From UHGV virus genome UHGV-0083175: a DNA stretch of 52,653 nt; one strand, 5' to 3'. Shown piece by piece: positions 4,168 to 16,188 of the stretch (the first letter of the stretch is position 1; every line of letters begins with the position of its first letter). Source of the stretch: a virus. Below the pieces are notes generated by a model. The model did no database searches and was not told the origin of the DNA. It saw only the letters and a program-made list of their open reading frames with translations. A program made the position numbers and the translations under genes.

Positions 4168-4679
4168 GCGAGATTAATTATCAGGAAGGGCATGAAACGG
4201 CAGGGCAGGCAAAACCAGTGGCATGGCGATATCGCTACGTGAAGAAAGACGTTACAGACTTTCAGGGGAAGCTGTGGGTTGGTGACTGGAAATATGTACC
4301 GACAAAAGAGGATTGCAACGACAGACCGAACTATGAAATTCAGGCCTTATTCATCGGCCCGCCAGTCCCGGTGACATCAGAAGGACTGGTTAAAGCTGTG
4401 CGCTTTTATGAACAGGTAAAGCGTGAGAATCCGCCAGTCGAAACAGGAGCATGGAAGGATGCTGTTGACTGGGTGCTCAGAGAGGCCTGCTGTGCTGCCA
4501 TTCTGGGTAAAGCCGACAATCCACCAGCATCCGGCAATCAGGTTAGCGAATTAGCAATGTGGGTTAAACGGCTGGTCAGCCAACTGAAAAAAGCGAAGCC
4601 GGACTGCAAATTACCGGATAAGGCGATGGACTACCTGAAGCGAAACGGACTGATAAACGAGGAGAATATTTTACGATGA
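4164..4679 (+). CDS. hypothetical phage protein
   Basis: 171-aa ORF, ATG overlapping the upstream stop; N-terminus MSEINYQE repeats the C-terminal motif of the DUF4406 gene. Confidence 0.45.
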   Translation: MSEINYQEGHETAGQAKPVAWRYRYVKKDVTDFQGKLWVGDWKYVPTKEDCNDRPNYEIQALFIGPPVPVTSEGLVKAVRFYEQVKRENPPVETGAWKDAVDWVLREACCAAILGKADNPPASGNQVSELAMWVKRLVSQLKKAKPDCKLPDKAMDYLKRNGLINEENILR

Positions 4680-4969
4680 CCTGGCCTGAAGCGTTCATAA
4701 CGGTAGGAATTGCAATGGCGGTGGCGCTGGTGGTGTATTCGATTTGCCGCTGGGGATAAAAACGGTTTGCGGGGAAAGAAGAGTTAAGTAGAATTGCTGC
4801 GGGTGCTTGAGGCTGTCTGCCTCGGGCATGCCGACGTAAGGCAGACAGAGAAAAGCCCCAGTTAACATTATGCGTCTTGCAGGACGCTTAACATTAATCT
4901 GAGGCCATATCTATGACTTGCACACTTAGATTAGCCTCTTATGCGCCGAAAGGCAAGGAGCAGCAGGCT

Positions 4970-6627: not shown

Positions 6628-6990
6628 ATGCTCATAGATTTGGTTTTACCTTACCCGCCGACGGTGAACACTTACTGGCGACGCCGTGGCAGCACATATT
6701 TTGTATCAAAAGCCGGGGAGCGTTATCGCCGGGCAGTGGCGCTTATTGTTCGCCAGCAGCGGCTGAAATTAAGACTGTCCGGACGGCTGGCAATAAAAAT
6801 TATTGCAGAGCCACCGGATAAGCGTCGTCGTGACCTGGACAATTTTCTGAAAGCGCCGCTGGATGCGCTGACGCATGCAGGAATGTTAATGGACGATGAG
6901 CAGTTTGATGAAATCAATATTGTACGTGGCAAGCCAGTATCTGGTGGACGGCTGGAGATAAGAATTACAGAGGTGGGTGTGCATGAATAA
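6628..6990 (+). CDS. rusA: Holliday junction resolvase RusA
   Basis: 120 aa; RRRDLDNFLKAPLDALTHAGMLMDDEQ and GGRLEIRITE align with E. coli RusA. Confidence 0.9.
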   Translation: MLIDLVLPYPPTVNTYWRRRGSTYFVSKAGERYRRAVALIVRQQRLKLRLSGRLAIKIIAEPPDKRRRDLDNFLKAPLDALTHAGMLMDDEQFDEINIVRGKPVSGGRLEIRITEVGVHE

Positions 6991-7648
6991 CCAGTATTTA
7001 CAGTTTGTTCGTGAGCAACTCATGATTGCCACTGCGGATCTTAGTGGGTCGACAAAAGGCCAGCTGGAAGTCTGGCAGGAAAATGCCCTGTTCGATACAG
7101 GGCGTTACAGACGCAAAAAAATTCGTTACCGCGATGAGGTAACCGGAAAAATGATCACGCGGGATAATCCCCCGATCCCGGGTAAACAATCACTGGCGAA
7201 AGGCTCATCAATTGCCCTGGTCAGTCCGGTTGAGTTTTCGACATCATCATGGCGACGCGCCGTTCTGTCTCTTGAAGAACATCATAAAGCCTGGCTGCTG
7301 TGGTGTTACAGCGGTAGCATTTGCTGGGAGCATCAGATCGCGATAACGCAGTGGGCGTGGACTGAATTTAATGCTCAATCCGGTACCAGAAAAATTGCAG
7401 GAAAAACTCTGGTGCGCCTGAAGACGTTGATCTGGTTGGCGGCGCAGGCGGTAAAAGCTGAGCTTTTTGGTGGGGAAGGTTACGAATACCAGGAACTGGC
7501 GTTACTGGTGGGAGTAACAACCAAAAACTGGTCCAAGACATTTACTGGTCACTGGGTTGCAATGAAACACATTTTTCATCGGCTGGATAGTGAAGCTTTA
7601 TTGTTGGTGGAGGGAACTCGTTCAAAACAAAAGGCGGCATTTTCATAG
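6983..7648 (+). CDS. late-gene antiterminator Q-like protein
   Basis: ATG 6983 overlaps the rusA stop (ATGAATAA); ~220 aa; immediately upstream of a strong promoter and terminator, as expected for Q / PR' / tR'. Confidence 0.55.
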   Translation: MNNQYLQFVREQLMIATADLSGSTKGQLEVWQENALFDTGRYRRKKIRYRDEVTGKMITRDNPPIPGKQSLAKGSSIALVSPVEFSTSSWRRAVLSLEEHHKAWLLWCYSGSICWEHQIAITQWAWTEFNAQSGTRKIAGKTLVRLKTLIWLAAQAVKAELFGGEGYEYQELALLVGVTTKNWSKTFTGHWVAMKHIFHRLDSEALLLVEGTRSKQKAAFS

Positions 7649-7901: not shown

Positions 7902-8615
7902 ATGGATGACAGTGCTCTGCTCAGAAACTCTTCACTTTTTGTCGCTTATATGGGCTGTCTCGGATGGGGGAGCGCTTATTTCTATGGATGGGGTACTTCA
8001 TTTTACTATGGCTTTCCATGGTGGGTTGTCGGGGCTGGTGTCGATGATGTAGCACGAAGTTTGTTTTATGCTGTGACAGTTATTGTTATATTCCTTATTG
8101 GATGGGGAGTTGGTATTGTTTTCTTTTTGGGCATAAAACAAAAGCGCAATATACAAAATTTGAGTTTTATCCGGCTTTTTCTCGCGATATTGCTGCTTTT
8201 TATTCCACCTGTTCTGGAGTTTTCTGTAATTCATCAGCATGTTGAGCCAGATGTACTGATTTTCTGCGTTCTTGCTGCCTTTGCAATCACGCTTTTTGTC
8301 AGGTCTGGAAGAAGACTTGTTTCAGTCAAATGTTTTTCGGAAATGTCTGTTATTCGCCATCACCGAATTGAGTTCATGATGGCTGGGTTTATGATTTATT
8401 TCTGGGCATTCTCTCTTATTGCCGGTTGGTACAAACCACAGTTTAAGAGGGAATATCAGGCGGTCCACTATGAGAATGTATGGTATTACATTATTGCGCG
8501 CTATGATGATCGTCTGGTGTTATCGAAATCATACAGGAGTGGGGGTAAGAAATTCGTTATATTTAATAGCGGAAATATTAATGATTTTGAAATTAATACT
8601 GTCAGAGTACGTTAA
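7902..8615 (+). CDS. AT-rich multi-pass membrane protein (moron)
   Basis: 237 aa with several hydrophobic Trp/Phe/Gly-rich segments; markedly AT-rich relative to flanking phage genes. Confidence 0.5.
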   Translation: MDDSALLRNSSLFVAYMGCLGWGSAYFYGWGTSFYYGFPWWVVGAGVDDVARSLFYAVTVIVIFLIGWGVGIVFFLGIKQKRNIQNLSFIRLFLAILLLFIPPVLEFSVIHQHVEPDVLIFCVLAAFAITLFVRSGRRLVSVKCFSEMSVIRHHRIEFMMAGFMIYFWAFSLIAGWYKPQFKREYQAVHYENVWYYIIARYDDRLVLSKSYRSGGKKFVIFNSGNINDFEINTVRVR

Positions 8616-8788
8616 AATTTCCTGAGTAATAAAGATTTTACTGCCCGGCATTGAGCGGTTTTTTTATGCCAGAAAAATGGTGCAGTACATAAAATGTGCA
8701 GGTGGTTATTAATACCGGTCTTTCAGCTTGCTGGCTTTTTTGACAAGAGTTACTGGTGTGTCACGTTAACCGGAAAAGGGAAAAAGAC

Positions 8789-8986
8789 ATGCTGAAACAG
8801 CAGGATATGACAGAAACCGCCAGAGTGGTGTTTAATGAATTAAGCGTCACCGAACCGGCGACAGTCGGGGAGATTGCACAGAATACGTACCTTTCACGCG
8901 AACGCTGTCAGTTAATACTGACCCAGCTTGTTATGGCGGGTCTGGCAGATTATCAGTTCGGTTGTTACAGACGCCTTCAGTCCTGA
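8789..8986 (+). CDS. small winged-helix regulator (FaeA/PapI-like)
   Basis: ORF 8756..8986, start taken at internal MLKQQ; TVGEIAQNTYLSRERCQLILTQLVMAGL resembles FaeA-like HTH proteins. Confidence 0.35.
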   Translation: MLKQQDMTETARVVFNELSVTEPATVGEIAQNTYLSRERCQLILTQLVMAGLADYQFGCYRRLQS

Positions 8987-8997
8987 AGGCTTTTTTA
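8973..8997 (+). terminator. rho-independent terminator
   Basis: GCCTTCAG-tcc-TGAAGGC stem followed by TTTTTT. Confidence 0.55.
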
Positions 8998-9136
8998 TTT
9001 GTGGTAAATGGGCGGCTGGTGGGTGTTAGGGGCACTCACCAGCCATCTGCTCATGCGTTGGGGTCACAAGCAAACCTCAGGCCCACTGCTTTGCGCAAAA
9101 GCAGAATGAGCCTATCAGAGACAGGCTTAATGATCC

Positions 9137-10195
9137 ATGCTTAATACTGTAAAAATATCCAGTTGTGAGTTAATCAACGCCGACTGCCTGGAATTTATCC
9201 GGTCGTTACCCGAAAATTCTGTTGACCTGATAGTCACGGACCCGCCGTACTTTAAAGTGAAGCCTGAGGGCTGGGATAACCAGTGGAAGGGCGACGATGA
9301 TTACCTGAAGTGGCTGGACCAGTGTCTGGCGCAGTTCTGGCGGGTGCTGAAACCTGCCGGAAGTCTTTACCTGTTCTGTGGCCATCGCCTGGCATCTGAT
9401 ATCGAAATCATGATGCGTGAACGCTTCAGTGTACTGAACCATATTATCTGGGCAAAGCCGTCCGGACGCTGGAACGGGTGCAACAAGGAAAGCCTGAGGG
9501 CGTATTTCCCCGCCACAGAGCGCATTCTGTTCGCGGAACATTATCAGGGGCCGTATCGTCCGAAAGATGCCGGGTATGAGGCGAAGGGCAGGGCACTGAA
9601 ACAGCATGTGATGGCTCCGCTGATTGCTTACTTTCGTGATGCGCGTGCTGCCCTGGGGATAACGGCAAAACAGATAGTGGATGCCACAGGAAAGAAAAAC
9701 ATGGTGTCGCACTGGTTCAGTGCCAGTCAGTGGCAGCTACCGAACGAAAGCGATTATCTGAAATTACAGGCGCTGTTTGCCCGGGTGGCAGAAGAGAAGC
9801 ATCAGCGCGGTGAACTGGAAAAGCCCCACCACCAGCTGCTGGAGACGTATACTTCACTGAACCGGCAGTATGCGGAACTGCAGAGTGAATATAAGCATCT
9901 GCGGCGGTATTTTGGCGTGACGGCGCAGGTGCCGTACACGGATGTGTGGACGCATAAACCGGTGCAGTACTATCCCGGGAAACATCCGTGCGAAAAACCG
10001 GCAGAAATGCTGCAGCAGATAATCAGCGCGAGCAGTCGTCCGGGGGACCTGGTTGCAGATTTTTTCATGGGGTCGGGTTCGACAGTCAAAGCCGCGATGG
10101 CGCTGGGGCGTCGTGCAACAGGCGTTGAGCTGGAGACTGAACGTTTTGAGCAGACGGTCAGGGAAGTTCAGGATTTAGCCAGTCAGAACGGATGA
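9137..10195 (+). CDS. DNA methyltransferase (N6-adenine/N4-cytosine class, DPPY motif)
   Basis: 352 aa; DLIVTDPPYF catalytic motif near the N-terminus and a C-terminal AdoMet-binding FFMGSGST segment. Confidence 0.8.
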   Translation: MLNTVKISSCELINADCLEFIRSLPENSVDLIVTDPPYFKVKPEGWDNQWKGDDDYLKWLDQCLAQFWRVLKPAGSLYLFCGHRLASDIEIMMRERFSVLNHIIWAKPSGRWNGCNKESLRAYFPATERILFAEHYQGPYRPKDAGYEAKGRALKQHVMAPLIAYFRDARAALGITAKQIVDATGKKNMVSHWFSASQWQLPNESDYLKLQALFARVAEEKHQRGELEKPHHQLLETYTSLNRQYAELQSEYKHLRRYFGVTAQVPYTDVWTHKPVQYYPGKHPCEKPAEMLQQIISASSRPGDLVADFFMGSGSTVKAAMALGRRATGVELETERFEQTVREVQDLASQNG

Positions 10196-10235
10196 TATTG
10201 CAGGATTAGTTACGTACCGTTATTATCCTGCGCCC

Positions 10236-10310
10236 GGCCCTTTAGCTCAGTGGTGAGAGCGAGCGACTCATAATCGCCAGGTCGCTGGTTCAAATCCAGC
10301 AAGGCCACCA
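10236..10310 (+). tRNA. tRNA with CAU anticodon (ileX-like tRNA-Ile2/Met), acceptor stem one nt short
   Basis: Hand-folded cloverleaf: D-arm GCTC/GAGC, anticodon loop CTCATAA, T-arm GCTGG-TTCAAAT-CCAGC, 3' ACCA; 3' acceptor strand AAGGCC versus expected AAGGGCC. Confidence 0.55.
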
Positions 10311-10319
10311 TATCACATA

Positions 10320-10396
10320 CCGCCATTAGCTCATCGGGATAGAGCGCCAGCCTTCGAAGCTGGCTGCGCGGGGTTCGAGTCCTCGATGGCGGTCCA
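10320..10396 (+). tRNA. tRNA-Arg (anticodon UCG)
   Basis: Complete 77-nt cloverleaf: acceptor CCGCCAT/ATGGCGG, anticodon loop CTTCGAA, T-arm CGGGG-TTCGAGT-CCTCG, 3' TCCA. Confidence 0.8.
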
Positions 10397-10674: not shown

Positions 10675-11103
10675 ATGTATTGCCGTGCTGTACCGGTTCT
10701 TGTTTTGATATTAGCCAGTCTGACAACTGGCTGCACAAAAGATGTATCGACAAATAATTATGATGCTTCTCTGTATCACTCAGATAAATTAATAAAGTCG
10801 CAAAATTTGAGCTCATCGGAACGTACCCCTGATGCCAGTGAAGAAATCCGGCTGTATGCCATTCAGGTCAGGAAAGCCATAGAAGAACAGTTAAAGGATG
10901 CGAGTAAGTATTCAGGAAAAGAGTGTTCACTGAGAATGTATATGGCCCCGAATGGTCTTCTGCTACAGGTTAAAAGAGAAAGCGGTGATCCCGATTTATG
11001 TCGTGAAGCGATGAATGCAGTAAAGAATGCTGATATACCATCACCACCGTCTTCAGGAGTATATAAAGCATTTAGAAATGGCGTGCTGGATTTTAAACTC
11101 TGA
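10675..11103 (+). CDS. lipoprotein with TolA C-terminal domain (TolA-III) homology
   Basis: Signal peptide with lipobox LTTGC; C-terminal ~90 aa (GKECSLRMYMAPNGLLLQVKRESGDPDLCREAM...VYKAFRNGVLDFKL) align with E. coli TolA domain III. Confidence 0.7.
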   Translation: MYCRAVPVLVLILASLTTGCTKDVSTNNYDASLYHSDKLIKSQNLSSSERTPDASEEIRLYAIQVRKAIEEQLKDASKYSGKECSLRMYMAPNGLLLQVKRESGDPDLCREAMNAVKNADIPSPPSSGVYKAFRNGVLDFKL

Positions 11104-11168: not shown

Positions 11169-11560
11169 GTGTTAAATCCCTCACAATTCAGTAAGTTGAC
11201 AGTTGCCTGTCAGACTGAGCATTTGTTAAAAAAATTTCGCATGGTGAATCCCCCTGTGCGGAGGGGCGACTGGTGAACGGTATGATCTCTTTGATGATCG
11301 TAAGCGAGAATACGCGGGTTTGGTGTCACCGGGCTGAACTCACCGGGAGGCACCCGGCACCATGCTCATGGTGATACAGAAATGCGGCTTCAGCCCCTCT
11401 CCGGAGGGGCTTTCTTATGGACAAAAAAAGCCCGCGCTGGGAGACGCGGGCGGCAAGGAATAAACAATAAAACGTGAAGTAATACTTCAACTGGCGAATA
11501 ATACCCGACAGTAATCACTCTGCGCAATAGCGCGGCCTTTTTCGAATTGCGGGCTGTAGT
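11169..11560 (+). repeat. structured repeat unit A (with 3' extension shared with unit D)
   Basis: Shares with three downstream units the blocks GTGTTAAATYCCTCACAATTCA, TTGTTAAAAAA, GCATGGTGAATCCCCCTGTGCGGAGGGG, CACCGGGAGGCACCCGGCA and a terminator hairpin. Confidence 0.8.
11239..11416 (+). ncRNA. candidate small RNA, repeat copy A
   Basis: Runs from conserved GCATGGTG to terminator GCCCCTCTCCGGAGGGGC + T-run; 5' CATGGTG can pair with 3' CACCATG; two internal hairpins. Confidence 0.35.
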
Positions 11561-11575
11561 CTCCCTTCTGCCGGG

Positions 11576-11735
11576 TGGCCTGGTTGCAGATTTCTTCATG
11601 GGGTAGGGTTCGGCAGTTAAAGCAGCGATGGCGCTGGGGCGTCGTGCAACTGGCGTTGAGCTGGATACCGGGCGTTTTGAACAGACTGCGCAGGAAATCA
11701 GGGATGTATTTAGCGGGAGCGGTTTGCAGAAGTAA
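11576..11735 (+). pseudogene. duplicated 3' fragment of the DNA methyltransferase gene
   Basis: ~150 nt nearly identical to 10041..10195; translates as GLVADFFMG*GSAVKAAMALGRRATGVELDTGRFEQ with an in-frame stop. Confidence 0.6.
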
Positions 11736-11798
11736 TCTCCCAAAATGCCATTTTTGGAATATACTGGTATTAAGTCTTTTTGCTCAGGTTAATTCAAA

Positions 11799-12524
11799 AT
11801 GGATGTTGCCTGCTCTGTGGTCCTGATTCGCTATCCGATAGATATTTTTCTTGAAAAAGAAAAAGTTTCACTCGATGCCGGAAGTGTTATGCTTGTTGCC
11901 AGAAATATAAGAGGGCTTTTCTGTGCTTATGCCGACAGAGTGAAAATGGCAGATATAAGTAACAGCGTCGTCAATCAGTATCTGGAAAGGGAGTGTGAAC
12001 TGACGGAGTATACACCGACAAAAATGCCTCTTTATTTGATGTCTGATATTTACAATACGGAACTGGCGGAGGCTTTAATAACCCAGCATAGTGAATCCAG
12101 TGATACTTTGAAGGATTTCTCTGTTATAACCGCATTTTCATGTATCTCCTTATTTGCAACAGACAGGCGTCTGCCATTATTTTTGTCCGGTGCTGTAAAT
12201 AATATCAGCTGTAAAGTAAGGGCTATAATTCAGACCGACATATCGGCAGGCTGGATGCTAGGTGTGATTGCATTACAATTGCATATGAGCGAAAGCTTGT
12301 TGAAGCGAAAACTTAAGGATGAAGGTTATAGCTTTAGTCGGTTGTTGCTGGAGGAGCGAATGCGTGTTGCTGTTAATCTTGTATGTTTCCAGCGAGAGTG
12401 TGGACAAGCGATAGCGGAAAAATGTGGTTACTCAAGTAAGTCCTATTTCATTTCTGTATTTCACCAGTATTATGGTGCACCACCTGAGAGCTATGCATAT
12501 TTGCAGAAAGCAGACGTTATCTGA
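11799..12524 (+). CDS. AraC-family transcriptional regulator (moron)
   Basis: 241 aa; C-terminal double HTH (GWMLGVIALQLHMSESLLKRKLKDEGYSFSRLL...IAEKCGYSSKSYFISVFHQYYGAPPESY); AT-rich. Confidence 0.6.
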   Translation: MDVACSVVLIRYPIDIFLEKEKVSLDAGSVMLVARNIRGLFCAYADRVKMADISNSVVNQYLERECELTEYTPTKMPLYLMSDIYNTELAEALITQHSESSDTLKDFSVITAFSCISLFATDRRLPLFLSGAVNNISCKVRAIIQTDISAGWMLGVIALQLHMSESLLKRKLKDEGYSFSRLLLEERMRVAVNLVCFQRECGQAIAEKCGYSSKSYFISVFHQYYGAPPESYAYLQKADVI

Positions 12525-12613
12525 TGTTTTTTCATCAGGCATATATTGATTGACTGTATTAGATATAGTCTGAATGTGTTCAGCATAAAAAGTTATAATC
12601 ATTTGGTGTTTGC

Positions 12614-12892
12614 GTGAATATTGATGAGAAAATCAGATGTAGCCAACTGTTACAGCGTATTGAAGCCGTCAATGTGGAACGAACAAAGGTCTTCAGTCGT
12701 CTGACAGTTTTATTTTGTACCCCTGATCGACGTTCAGGTCAGGAGATGGTTCTTCTGGATGTAGATGCACTTCGGAACGTCTGTGAGGAGTTCACCGCGG
12801 CTAATTCGGAGTTACTGAGTCTTGTTCAGGAGTACAACAGAATTGCAGGTAGTAACGGTTTTGATGAAATCAAAATTATATCCCGTGGATAA
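12614..12892 (+). CDS. hypothetical protein
   Basis: 92-aa ORF with GTG start downstream of the AraC-like gene; no recognised motif. Confidence 0.3.
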   Translation: MNIDEKIRCSQLLQRIEAVNVERTKVFSRLTVLFCTPDRRSGQEMVLLDVDALRNVCEEFTAANSELLSLVQEYNRIAGSNGFDEIKIISRG

Positions 12893-13210
12893 AACATATC
12901 CTGTATATTTATGTTGTTACATACAGGCGCTTTTAGTATCTGCCGCACGGCAGTTGTACTTTAGAATAAGATGCTTTTGTGACTGGTGGTGTTGTATCTG
13001 GGGTTAGCCAGGAGGCAGGTTCAGAGAGTCCGGTGGTAATTATGTGTATGCAGTGGTTGTTGCTGTACCGTGGGCAAGTTCTGGAACTGGCTTCGTCCAT
13101 TGTAGATGATTGTTAGCTGGATATCAGTTACCTCATGGAAATGTTAAATGACTCACAATTCGGTTGATGGACTATTGTCTGATCGATGGAAGTCTTGTAA
13201 AAACGAGCCA

Positions 13211-13377
13211 GCATAGTGAATCCCCCTGTGCGGAGGGGCGTCTGACATGGTCTCCATAGCGATGGTCACAATACGCAGATTCAGTAGTCAGGCTGAATCT
13301 ACCGGGAGGCACCCGGCACTATGCTGCTTATGGTGTATACATAGCGATCGGCCCCTCTCCGGAGGGGCTTTTTTTGT
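13211..13377 (+). ncRNA. candidate small RNA, repeat copy B
   Basis: GCATAGTG...CACTATGC long-range pairing (compensatory versus copy A), conserved hairpins, terminator GCCCCTCTCCGGAGGGGC + TTTTTTT. Confidence 0.35.
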
Positions 13378-13469
13378 GCGGGAAAAGGCTGTGTTGTTAA
13401 GTGTTAAATTCCTCACAGTTCAGATGGTTGATGCTTGCCTGTCTGAGGGGGAGTTGTTAAAAAAGTTCT

Positions 13470-13637
13470 GCATGGTGAATCCCCCTGAGCGGAGGGGCAT
13501 ATCAGCGCAGGTGTTTCTACTCTATCCTTTCTGTGCGGGTTCAGGTGCTGATACTGAACTCACCGGGAGGCACCCGGCATCATGCATATGGTTAACAGAC
13601 ACGTAGCGAAGCCCCTCTCCGGAGGGGCTTTTTTATG
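13470..13637 (+). ncRNA. candidate small RNA, repeat copy C
   Basis: GCATGGTG...CATCATGC pairing with one G-U wobble, conserved hairpins, terminator + T-run. Confidence 0.35.
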
Positions 13638-13729
13638 CAGGGAAAAGGCTGTGTTGTGAAATGTTAAATTCCTCACAATTCATGAGGTTGATGATTGTCT
13701 GATTGATGAGGAGTTTGTTAAAAAAAACG

Positions 13730-13884
13730 GCATGGTGAATCCCCCTGTGCGGAGGGGTGATATCGTATCATTTCATGTGTGGCCGACTGATATCACGGAC
13801 ATTTGTTCACCGGGAGGCACCCGGCACCTGCAGTATACAGAGATTAGGCATACATCCAGGCTCCTCATCGCAGGAGCCTTTTTA
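13730..13884 (+). ncRNA. candidate small RNA, repeat copy D
   Basis: Conserved 5' blocks; terminator replaced by compensatory variant GCTCCTCATCGCAGGAGC + TTTTT. Confidence 0.3.
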
Positions 13885-14115
13885 CATGTAAAAAAAACCG
13901 CTCCCGGGAAGAGCGGTTGGCAAGGAAGCAAGGAATAAATAACAAAACGTGAAGTAATTTATTCAGCACCCTAATAATACCTTAGAGTAATCACCTTGCG
14001 CAACTGTAAGGGCGTATTTCTTTTTTGCGGGCTGTTTTTCTGTGTGACTTTTGTGTTTCCGGAGGTCAGTCCGTGCCTTCTCTGACTCAGAACATTATCC
14101 CGGCCGGGAGGATTC

Positions 14116-16053
14116 ATGGCATTTAAACACTACGATGTGGTCAGGGCGGCATCGCCGTCAGACCTTGCTGAACGACTGACACAAAAACTGAAGGAGGGCT
14201 GGCAGCCATTTGGCAGTCCGGTGGTCATCACGCCTTATACCCTGATGCAGGCCATTGCGGCGGAAGGTGATGTCACCACACCAGTGGCGGTGACCGGTAA
14301 TGAGGGTAAGGCGGTGGCTGTCAGTGCCACCAGCGACCCGGAGTATTACTTTGTTGTGGTTCTGGCAGGGCAGTCAAATGGCATGTCGTATGGTGAAGGT
14401 CTTCCGCTGCCGGAGACATATGACCGTCCGGACCCGCGTATTAAGCAGCTGGCGCGCCGCAGTACGGTGACACCGGGCGGTGTCGCCTGTAAATATAACG
14501 ACATCATTCCGGCGGACCATTGTCTGCATGATGTGCAGGACATGAGCCGTCTTAACCATCCGAAAGCGGACCTGTCAAAGGGGCAGTACGGAACCGTGGG
14601 GCAGGGGCTGCATATCGCCAAAAAACTGCTGCCGTTTATACCGGCGAATGCGGGTATTCTGCTGGTTCCGTGCTGTCGTGGTGGTTCAGCGTTCACCACC
14701 GGAGCTGATGGCACATACAGTGACGCGAGTGGTGCCTCGGAGAATTCAGCGCGCTGGGGTGTGGACAAGCCGCTGTATAAGGACCTTATCGGTCGAACAA
14801 AAGCAGCACTGAAGAAGAACCCGAAAAATGTGCTGTTTGCCGTGGTGTGGATGCAGGGGGAATTTGATTTTGACGGCACGCCCGGAAATCACGCAGCACA
14901 GTTTGGTGCGCTGGTTGATAAATTCCGTGCAGACCTGACGGATATGGCAGGTCAGTGCGTTGGTGGCTCTGCTGGCGGTGTTCCCTGGATATGCGGGGAC
15001 ACGACGTATTTCTGGAAGCAGAAGAACGAATCCACCTGCCAGATGGTGTACGGCAGCTATAAAAACAAAACGGAAAAGAATATCCATTTCGTACCGTTCA
15101 TGACGGATGAGAACGGGGTGAATGTGCCGACGAACAAACCGGAAGAAGACCCGGACATTCCGGGTATCGGGTATTACGGTTCGAAATGGCGTGACAGCTC
15201 AGCCACCTGGACGTCACAGGACAGGGCGAGCCATTTCAGCACCTGGGCACGCCGGGGGATTATTTCCGACCGTCTGGCAACGGCGATTCTGATTCATGCA
15301 GGACGAACCACAGTAAAAGTCGATGCTCCATCTTCTGAAACTGGCGCACCGACGCCATCACCGTCAGAAAATGAAGCGGTAAGCACAACAACACTGCTGT
15401 CTTACCGTGCCAGTGAGTCTGAAGGGAGGCTGACCGAACAGGGCTGGAGTGCTGGCGGAGGTAAAGCGGAAATTGTTGCTGATGAAGGTGCAACAGGTGG
15501 TACCGCGATGAAGCTGAGCAAGGAGACAGGAGTGGGGTCATGGTATCTGGAGCATGATGCCGGTACTGGCGCTGAACTGCTGAAAAATGGCGGTTTAATC
15601 AGCTGCCGCTTTAAGGCATCCGGTGAACTGGTAGCAAATCAGTATGTCATTGCACTTTACTGGCCGGTTTCCTCTCTGCCGCAGGGTGTCACCCTGACAG
15701 GGGATGCAGGGAATAATCTGCTGGCAGCGTTTTACATCCAGACAGATGCAAAAGACCTGAATGTGATGTACCACAATGCGAAGGTGGCGACAAATAACCT
15801 GAAACTGGGAAGCTTTGGCGCATTTGATAACGAATGGCATACGCTGGCTTTCCGCTTTGCCGGGAATAACAGCCTTCAGGTGACGCCGGTTATTGATGGT
15901 CAGGATGGCACACCGTTCACGCTGACGCAGTCACCGGTCAGTGCATTTTCGGCGGATAAGTTGCATGTGACAGACATTACCAAAAGTGCGACTTACCCGG
16001 TACTGATAGACAGCATTGCGGTGGTAGTGAATAACGCGGACGCCGCGGCATGA
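14116..16053 (+). CDS. nanS-p: NanS-p-like sialate O-acetylesterase (SGNH/SASA hydrolase)
   Basis: 645 aa; VVVLAGQSNGMSYGEG active-site region; size and position (upstream of the lysis cassette) match nanS-p of Stx phages. Confidence 0.75.
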   Translation: MAFKHYDVVRAASPSDLAERLTQKLKEGWQPFGSPVVITPYTLMQAIAAEGDVTTPVAVTGNEGKAVAVSATSDPEYYFVVVLAGQSNGMSYGEGLPLPETYDRPDPRIKQLARRSTVTPGGVACKYNDIIPADHCLHDVQDMSRLNHPKADLSKGQYGTVGQGLHIAKKLLPFIPANAGILLVPCCRGGSAFTTGADGTYSDASGASENSARWGVDKPLYKDLIGRTKAALKKNPKNVLFAVVWMQGEFDFDGTPGNHAAQFGALVDKFRADLTDMAGQCVGGSAGGVPWICGDTTYFWKQKNESTCQMVYGSYKNKTEKNIHFVPFMTDENGVNVPTNKPEEDPDIPGIGYYGSKWRDSSATWTSQDRASHFSTWARRGIISDRLATAILIHAGRTTVKVDAPSSETGAPTPSPSENEAVSTTTLLSYRASESEGRLTEQGWSAGGGKAEIVADEGATGGTAMKLSKETGVGSWYLEHDAGTGAELLKNGGLISCRFKASGELVANQYVIALYWPVSSLPQGVTLTGDAGNNLLAAFYIQTDAKDLNVMYHNAKVATNNLKLGSFGAFDNEWHTLAFRFAGNNSLQVTPVIDGQDGTPFTLTQSPVSAFSADKLHVTDITKSATYPVLIDSIAVVVNNADAAA

Positions 16054-16188
16054 TAAAAAAAGCCGCCAGTTACCGGAATGGACTGGCGGTGGTAATACCT
16101 ATGGAGAAAAAATAAAGGAACGATACTTTCGTACTCTGTTTTTTTAAATGAAAACAGTTCTTATTGTCAACAATAACGGTAAGAAATT

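Follow-up and report, generated by a model that had tools for sequence, protein, structure and literature searches.

A Psr-like AraC-family regulator in the late-leader moron slot of a lambdoid Escherichia coli prophage

The genes at the locus

The window analysed here, UHGV virus genome UHGV-0083175, is a stretch of 52,653 nucleotides from a lambdoid Escherichia coli prophage. Its late leader carries a gene for an AraC/XylS-family regulator of 241 amino acids (11799-12524, ATG start; phrog_1450, 4.8e-92), followed by an open reading frame (ORF) of 92 amino acids, ORF92 (12614-12892, GTG start; phrog_2873, 1e-46). All genes discussed below are on the plus strand. The pair lies between the gene of the antiterminator Q (6977-7648; Pfam Phage_antiter_Q, 1.3e-90), which marks the start of the late leader, and a nanS-p-type sialate O-acetylesterase gene (14116-16053; Pfam DUF1737, SASA and DUF6645), which forms the right end of the moron slot and is followed by the lysis genes. 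On either side are repeat units, one upstream (A) and three in tandem downstream (B to D), and a 138-nt methylase remnant separates unit A from the regulator. Both genes are AT-rich: GC content is 41.3% in the regulator gene, 43.0% in ORF92 and 29.2% in the spacer between them, against 51.5% for the whole window. The surrounding 1.7-kb stretch matches strain N51 at 100% identity and many chromosomes of Shiga toxin-producing E. coli (STEC) at 99.4-99.7%.

A sequence-only reading of this DNA had described the two genes as an AT-rich AraC-type regulator and its partner, embedded in the late leader as a discrete cassette bounded by repeats. Both ORFs, their base composition, their place in the late leader and the repeats themselves are borne out. 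The partnership and the cassette are not, as set out below.

The regulator and its relatives

Members of the AraC/XylS family share a C-terminal DNA-binding domain of about 100 amino acids with two helix-turn-helix (HTH) motifs, and such a domain is present here. HTH_18 scores 47.3 bits over residues 158-232 (gathering threshold 33.6; 2.6e-12) and HTH_AraC scores 41.5 bits in two stretches (gathering threshold 26.6; 1.4e-10). As both Pfam scores lie above gathering, the double-HTH C-terminus that had been read from the letters is real and far above chance; the outcome that would have refuted the sequence-only reading, a profile search with no AraC HTH match, did not occur. The best solved relatives by sequence are the DNA-binding domains of GadX (3mkl, 1.9e-18), Rns, CsvR and ToxT. 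At the other end of the protein, the motif MxVxCSVI... is conserved out to YdeO, GadW and AppY, with C5 invariant, so that the long 241-amino-acid start is favoured over an internal methionine. A search of 5.8 billion database proteins identifies the regulator as WP_000382066.1; its next relatives, 54-63% identical, are all E. coli proteins of 236-242 amino acids with the same two domains. Against homologues, the ratio of non-synonymous to synonymous substitution (dN/dS) is 0.15-0.21 with synonymous sites saturated, a pattern that indicates strong purifying selection on the regulator.

Which characterised regulator does it most resemble? The names of the protein clusters did not show which of them are PsrA, PsrB and PatE, and PsrA was mapped through ECs1087 of the Sakai prophage Sp4: cluster P0015 matches a 237-amino-acid reading of ECs1087 at BLAST-level identity, and ECs1087 was named psrA in a 2026 paper (PMC13502914). 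Clusters P0006 and P0011, which are 88-89% identical to PsrA, are presumed from this identity to be PsrB-type. The window regulator is homologous to these proteins over its full length, sharing 58% of its residues with PsrA and 59% with the PsrB-like P0006 over 99% of its length, a similar size (241 versus 237 amino acids) and the same Pfam domains. The DNA-binding domain is 74-75% identical (74% for PsrA), whereas the N-terminal 130 residues are only 48% identical to PsrA. The recognition-helix stretches, bounded according to general knowledge of the AraC family, are nearly the same as in PsrA when the alignment is read by eye: SESLLKRKLK versus SESLLKIKLK in the first motif and SKSYFISVFHQ versus SWSYFISVFHR in the second.

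Other regulators are more distant. ECs0287, presumably PatE to judge from its island and annotation, is also prophage-borne and AraC-like and belongs to the same broad YdeO/GadX/AppY-like group, but it is 37% identical overall (29% in the N-terminal 130 residues, 47% in the DNA-binding domain) and sits at a degraded prophage end by tail-fibre and pin genes. Five regulators encoded by the K-12 chromosome or its cryptic prophages can be aligned end to end, N-terminal domain included, at 26-34% overall identity and 42-46% in the DNA-binding domain. GadW is the closest (34% overall, 26% N-terminal, 46% DNA-binding), followed by YdeO (30%, 21% and 42%), AppY (28%, 18% and 42%), EnvY (27%, 14% and 43%) and GadX (26%, 13% and 42%). 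The best NCBIfam model is that of YdeO (NF007407), which matches residues 1-230 at 1.4e-34. The score of 119.8 bits is short of the equivalog cut-off of 348, and the GadX equivalog (NF007432) reaches 92.6 bits against a cut-off of 500. Since the alignments to YdeO and GadX run end to end and fall below these cut-offs, the regulator is related to this group and is neither protein itself. It also forms a clade apart from the PsrA/PsrB cluster, whose members are 88-100% identical, and no relative closer than 63% was found.

The moron slot and its carriers

In Sp4 the order is Q, a CAAX protease gene, a small ORF, psrA, ileZ/argN/argO and nanS-p, with pchA also near psrA; like the window regulator, psrA occupies the lambdoid prophage slot between Q and nanS-p, ahead of lysis. 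Homologues recur there in other combinations. One related locus (L005) reads Q, methylase, AraC, two STnc100 copies and nanS; another (L017) runs from Q through AraC to nanS; phage phiSTEC1575-Stx2k (L006) carries AraC between Q and the tRNA genes that precede stx2AB; and L002 has an AraC homologue in the slot as well. From these recurrent positions it follows that the Psr-like family has a constant place in the late leader's variable moron slot, where stx is also carried. The immediate neighbours differ: upstream lies a methylase gene or its remnant in loci of the window type and a CAAX protease gene at psrA, and downstream lies ORF92 in the window and tRNA genes at psrA. In the Stx2k phage, where the Psr-like gene is upstream of the tRNAs and stx2, toxin, regulator and small RNA (sRNA) stand in one late leader.

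Of 5426 complete E. coli genomes, 80 carry the allele at an identity of at least 99%, and all 80 have an intact reading frame; in the O91:H21 strain FWSEC0008 the gene is CAX06_RS13125. The carriers are mostly non-O157 STEC serotypes, among them O91:H21, O113:H21, O178:H19, O22:H8, O104:H21 and O43, which we take to be LEE-negative STEC, that is, to lack the enterocyte effacement locus (LEE). For comparison, psrA/psrB-type genes at an identity of at least 80% occur in 726 of the 5426. The AraC-ORF92 block has no near-identical counterpart at the DNA level in deposited phage genomes; at the protein level, phage relatives of the regulator are 59% identical (Stx2k phage) and 37% identical (lambda-like phages), and the ORF92 relative in mEp460_ev081 is 58% identical. 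In the literature searched, neither the accession WP_000382066 nor the combination of LEE-negative strains, AraC, prophage and O113 led to a paper on the protein.

Taken by sequence, domain content and position, the regulator is a known kind of prophage regulator and not a new kind of system. It is probably a previously uncharacterised paralogue of PsrA and PsrB, carried as a single-gene moron, a prophage-borne gene that phage growth can do without. As such it represents a distinct, unstudied Psr clade, fixed at an identity of at least 99% in a non-O157 STEC prophage lineage.

ORF92 as a separate moron

ORF92 is a real gene, although PGAP/RefSeq does not annotate it. Its length of 92 codons and its GTG start are kept in mEp460_ev081 and in a diverged locus (L016) at 59-62% identity and with no gaps. 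Its dN/dS is 0.23-0.33, its differences from mEp460_ev081 number 25, 23 and 43 at codon positions 1, 2 and 3, and L016 has an AGGAG shortly before the GTG. HMMER, run exhaustively against 1.8 billion cluster representatives, found only 18 relatives; Pfam and NCBIfam gave no match. AlphaFold2 confidently predicts a helix, beta-hairpin and helix (predicted local distance difference test, pLDDT, 90.7), for which no Foldseek hit reaches an E-value of 0.001. The matches are generic for helical hairpins, with designed proteins, SMC and prefoldin scoring at least as high.

Are the regulator and ORF92 a functional two-gene unit? ORF92 might, for example, modulate or antagonise the regulator as TraM does TraR, and the two are adjacent and occur together in every complete genome that has either: each is found in 80 complete genomes, and the 1.7-kb block is covered to at least 80% in 80 records. 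The order methylase end, AraC, ORF92 is also present in two diverged loci, L016 and L073, where AraC is 63-64% and ORF92 61-62% identical. The wider ORF92 family speaks against such a unit. Among 87 loci (80 of them IMG/VR loci, two taken from the genome collection, five identified before), 77 have no adjacent AraC gene; the other ten are L016, L073 and eight loci that have the 99% ORF92 allele. Nor do most AraC homologues have an ORF92: none lies downstream of psrA, P0005, P0004 or the AraC homologue of the Stx2k phage. The two AraC-ORF92 versions do not share a conserved spacer, and homology to the AraC-free module of mEp460_ev081 begins at 12544, only 20 nt past the AraC stop. The generic character of the structural matches likewise gives no support to a partner role. 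An obligate AraC plus ORF92 module, which would call for conserved adjacency, is contradicted by the ten-in-87 count. Phylogenetic comparison of the two says nothing about co-inheritance either way, the three versions of each protein being about equidistant (59-63%). A functional pair is on balance unlikely.

Instead, ORF92 is a separate, widespread moron of the late leader. Its usual settings are methylase, two tRNA genes, ORF92, STnc100 and nanS, or Q, tRNA genes, ORF92, STnc100 and a tolA-like gene. The simplest reading of these gene orders is that ORF92, STnc100 and nanS form a backbone and that AraC fills the interval used elsewhere by tRNA genes. In a single case, a metagenomic contig (L015, 1244-2375), an ORF92 relative (P0169, 31%) lies about 570 nt 3' of a gene for a 93-amino-acid GerE/LuxR-type HTH protein.

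The STnc100 repeats

The four repeat units are STnc100 sRNA genes. All are full-length matches to Rfam RF02076 (model positions 1-206), at 119-172 bits against a gathering threshold of 47: copy A at 11210-11422 (172.4 bits, E 5.2e-40), copy B at 13182-13377 (119.5 bits), copy C at 13441-13640 (141.2 bits) and copy D at 13702-13889 (129.4 bits). The tandem copies B to D correspond to the direct-repeat families D1, D3 and D4, with a spacing of about 260 nt. At the 3' end of every copy stands a GC-rich hairpin with a T run after it; copy A ends in an intrinsic terminator at 11392-11411, and the 3' terminator-like hairpins of B, C and D are at 13350-13369, 13614-13627 and 13858-13879. Strong terminator-like hairpins on the minus strand, at 11430-11451 and 13896-13918, lie directly 3' of copies A and D and face the plus-strand terminators; with terminators thus opposed, the sRNA block is closed in both directions at each of its ends.

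STnc100 is a known prophage sRNA family, related to PasD, and published work places it downstream of stx2 and adjacent to a sialate esterase gene (PMC12370729; bioRxiv 10.64898/2026.05.13.724894). The window differs in having four copies in one leader, one upstream and three in tandem, and the data hold no functional link between them and the AraC gene. In related loci a copy follows whichever gene fills the slot: stx2B (L006), an ORF92 homologue (L007), psrA plus tRNAs (L002), AraC (L005), and also a tolA-like gene. In L006 the match (8306-8500) starts within the 3' end of stx2B, which ends at 8324. Because the direct repeats that flank the regulator are sRNA genes also present without AraC, they are not cassette ends; they are a generic feature of the slot.

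The number of copies downstream of ORF92 varies among loci that share the window's AraC allele: one in L021, three in the window and four in L008 (O91:H21 FWSEC0008). These blocks span 4569-4758, 13182-13889 and 8683-9662, respectively, with a period of about 260 nt in otherwise near-identical prophages. The repeats are likely a recombination substrate, and the variable copy number implies a variable gene dosage of the sRNA.

Origin of the arrangement

If the repeats do not bound a cassette, what set the left edge of the AraC unit? Between copy A and the regulator lies the 3' remnant of a second methylase gene (11571-11708), which shares 83% identity with the end of the intact methylase gene that lies 1.5 kb upstream (10040-10177) and is annotated as a methylase pseudogene in RefSeq NZ_CP031906. 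The sequence before the start of the remnant and the sequence from there onward align with different parts of the same related locus. Positions 11180-11572 align at 82% with the STnc100-plus-leader segment of L005 that runs up to nanS, and from 11571 onward (11571-12495) the window is colinear, at 69%, with L005 sequence that runs from the 3' end of an intact methylase gene into the AraC gene next to it. An undisturbed form is preserved in the IMG/VR contig L021, in the order intact methylase, identical AraC allele, ORF92, one STnc100 copy and nanS. We infer that the window arose by a join at about 11571 of two leaders, one with methylase, tRNA, tolA-like and STnc100 genes and the other beginning in a methylase 3' end and continuing through AraC, ORF92 and STnc100 to nanS. 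The junction has no extended homology, and the join was therefore illegitimate or guided by very short homology. The remnant, at the left edge of the AraC unit, is the scar of this recombination.

A discrete mobile cassette would be expected to have terminal inverted or attachment repeats. The only inverted repeats here are the palindromic stems of the STnc100 terminators, and the ORF list shows no recombinase ORF between the methylase and the esterase gene. The cassette proposed by the sequence-only reading thus gives way to ordinary late-leader mosaicism, in which morons are shuffled, and the locus is an example of joins between moron-plus-STnc100 modules rebuilding the stx slot in lambdoid phages.

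What the regulator may do

The idea that a prophage-borne AraC-like protein could rewire a host regulon finds a direct precedent in the closest characterised relatives. Published accounts describe PsrA and PsrB of E. coli O157:H7 as activators of gadE, yhiF and hdeA, genes of acid resistance, which thereby repress LEE type III secretion; the action runs through GadE/YhiF, and the hdeA promoter is bound by PsrB and PatE (PMC10877973, PMC8565820). The fragments to which PsrB and PatE bind come from the hdeA (-132 to -45) and gadE promoters. Prophage AraC-like regulators of this kind (PsrA, PsrB, PatE) tie prophage carriage to acid resistance and virulence-gene control in O157:H7.

Most likely, the window regulator would be transcribed in the lysogen from a weak promoter of its own, with a candidate -10 hexamer, TATACT, at 11760-11765. 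The hexamer lines up with TATAAT in the diverged homologous loci L005, L016 and L073, at about 70% identity; two terminator-like sites (11392-11411 and 11520-11535) separate the regulator from the genes upstream. Given its AT-richness, the gene is probably silenced by H-NS. Once the prophage is induced, the late transcript antiterminated by Q would cover the gene as well, as it does stx. The protein may bind AT-rich promoter DNA through its two C-terminal HTH motifs and, like PsrA and PsrB, activate gadE, yhiF and hdeA and so raise the acid resistance of the host. If the carriers are LEE-negative STEC, the Psr circuit would lack its type III secretion arm and acid resistance would be the relevant output. 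Should the allele indeed drive gad and hde genes, it would help explain the acid tolerance and low infectious dose of its carriers and would make an easy marker.

Several observations weigh against this picture. A scan for consensus sigma-70 promoters finds no site upstream of the regulator or of ORF92, with a total count at the expectation from shuffled sequence; the candidate -35 is poor, and the Shine-Dalgarno sequence is weak (AGG about 11 nt upstream). An AlphaFold2 model of the regulator, built from a 12-sequence alignment, has a mean pLDDT of 44.7, too low for a fold comparison or a claim about a ligand pocket. The N-terminal domain, presumably the regulatory one, is the part most diverged from PsrA, and both signal input and target range could differ.

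One rival reading is that the gene is silent, functionless cargo that hitch-hikes in a successful prophage: neither a strong promoter nor a strong ribosome-binding site turned up, the gene is AT-rich, and the allele is near-clonal at 99% identity or more, so that its conservation in 80 genomes could reflect recent spread. Against this, dN/dS is low across homologues with saturated synonymous sites, the reading frame is intact in all 80 genomes, the N-terminus with its invariant C5 is kept out to YdeO, GadW and AppY, and a -10-like element is conserved. Idle cargo is very unlikely.

A second possibility is that the regulator works mainly on its phage neighbours (STnc100, ORF92, nanS-p, late and lysis genes) and not on a host regulon. 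AraC-family regulators often control adjacent genes, and the family holds a conserved position directly upstream of STnc100 and nanS-p. Against local control, STnc100 and nanS-p stand in the same arrangement in many phages without AraC, and PsrA and PsrB act on chromosomal gad genes (PMC10877973). We regard a mainly local role as unlikely. Very improbable, too, is a self-contained prophage regulatory module at the stx position, in which the allele, confined as it is to a prophage lineage of mostly non-O157 STEC serotypes, could run a regulon unlike that of PsrA and PsrB (adhesins or toxin-related genes of LEE-negative strains, for example), with ORF92 as a helical-hairpin anti-activator and the amplified STnc100 sRNAs in the circuit. 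A PsrA/PsrB paralogue acting on host acid-resistance genes remains the reading that we favour.

Other features of the late leader

Further genes lie in the upstream part of the late leader. Between Q and the methylase gene, in the early late leader, lies an ORF of 237 amino acids (7902-8615) that has no Pfam match and is annotated as hypothetical in the O91:H21 record. The intact DNA methylase gene follows at 9137-10195 (Pfam N6_N4_Mtase, 5.8e-44), and then two phage tRNA genes detected by ARAGORN and the Rfam tRNA model, one with anticodon CAT (10235-10309) and one for tRNA-Arg(TCG) (10320-10396). ARAGORN calls the first Met(CAT), whereas its equivalents, with the same anticodon, are annotated as tRNA-Ile/ileZ in the N51, O91:H21 and Sakai records (annotation of the equivalent genes was taken from loci L008 and L009). 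The window is without Arg-TCT, the third tRNA of the usual ileZ-argN-argO set.

Just 3' of the esterase gene, on the minus strand at 16055-16129, there is a sub-threshold Rfam match to Esr41, an sRNA of enterohaemorrhagic E. coli (23.8 bits against a gathering threshold of 102, E 0.41), which is probably a chance match or a diverged relative.

Upstream of STnc100 copy A lies a gene for a 142-amino-acid protein resembling the TolA C-terminal domain (10675-11103; Pfam TolA C-terminal, 4.6e-22; phrog_5772, 4.9e-57), named 'cell envelope integrity protein TolA' by PGAP. PADLOC defence models match neither this protein nor the regulator nor ORF92. The N-terminus (...LILASLTTGC) looks like a lipoprotein signal, and one may speculate that a periplasmic TolA-domain decoy could interfere with colicins or filamentous phages that depend on TolA. 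The gene is a separate moron in the same slot, where it recurs in mEp460_ev081 and in several IMG/VR contigs.

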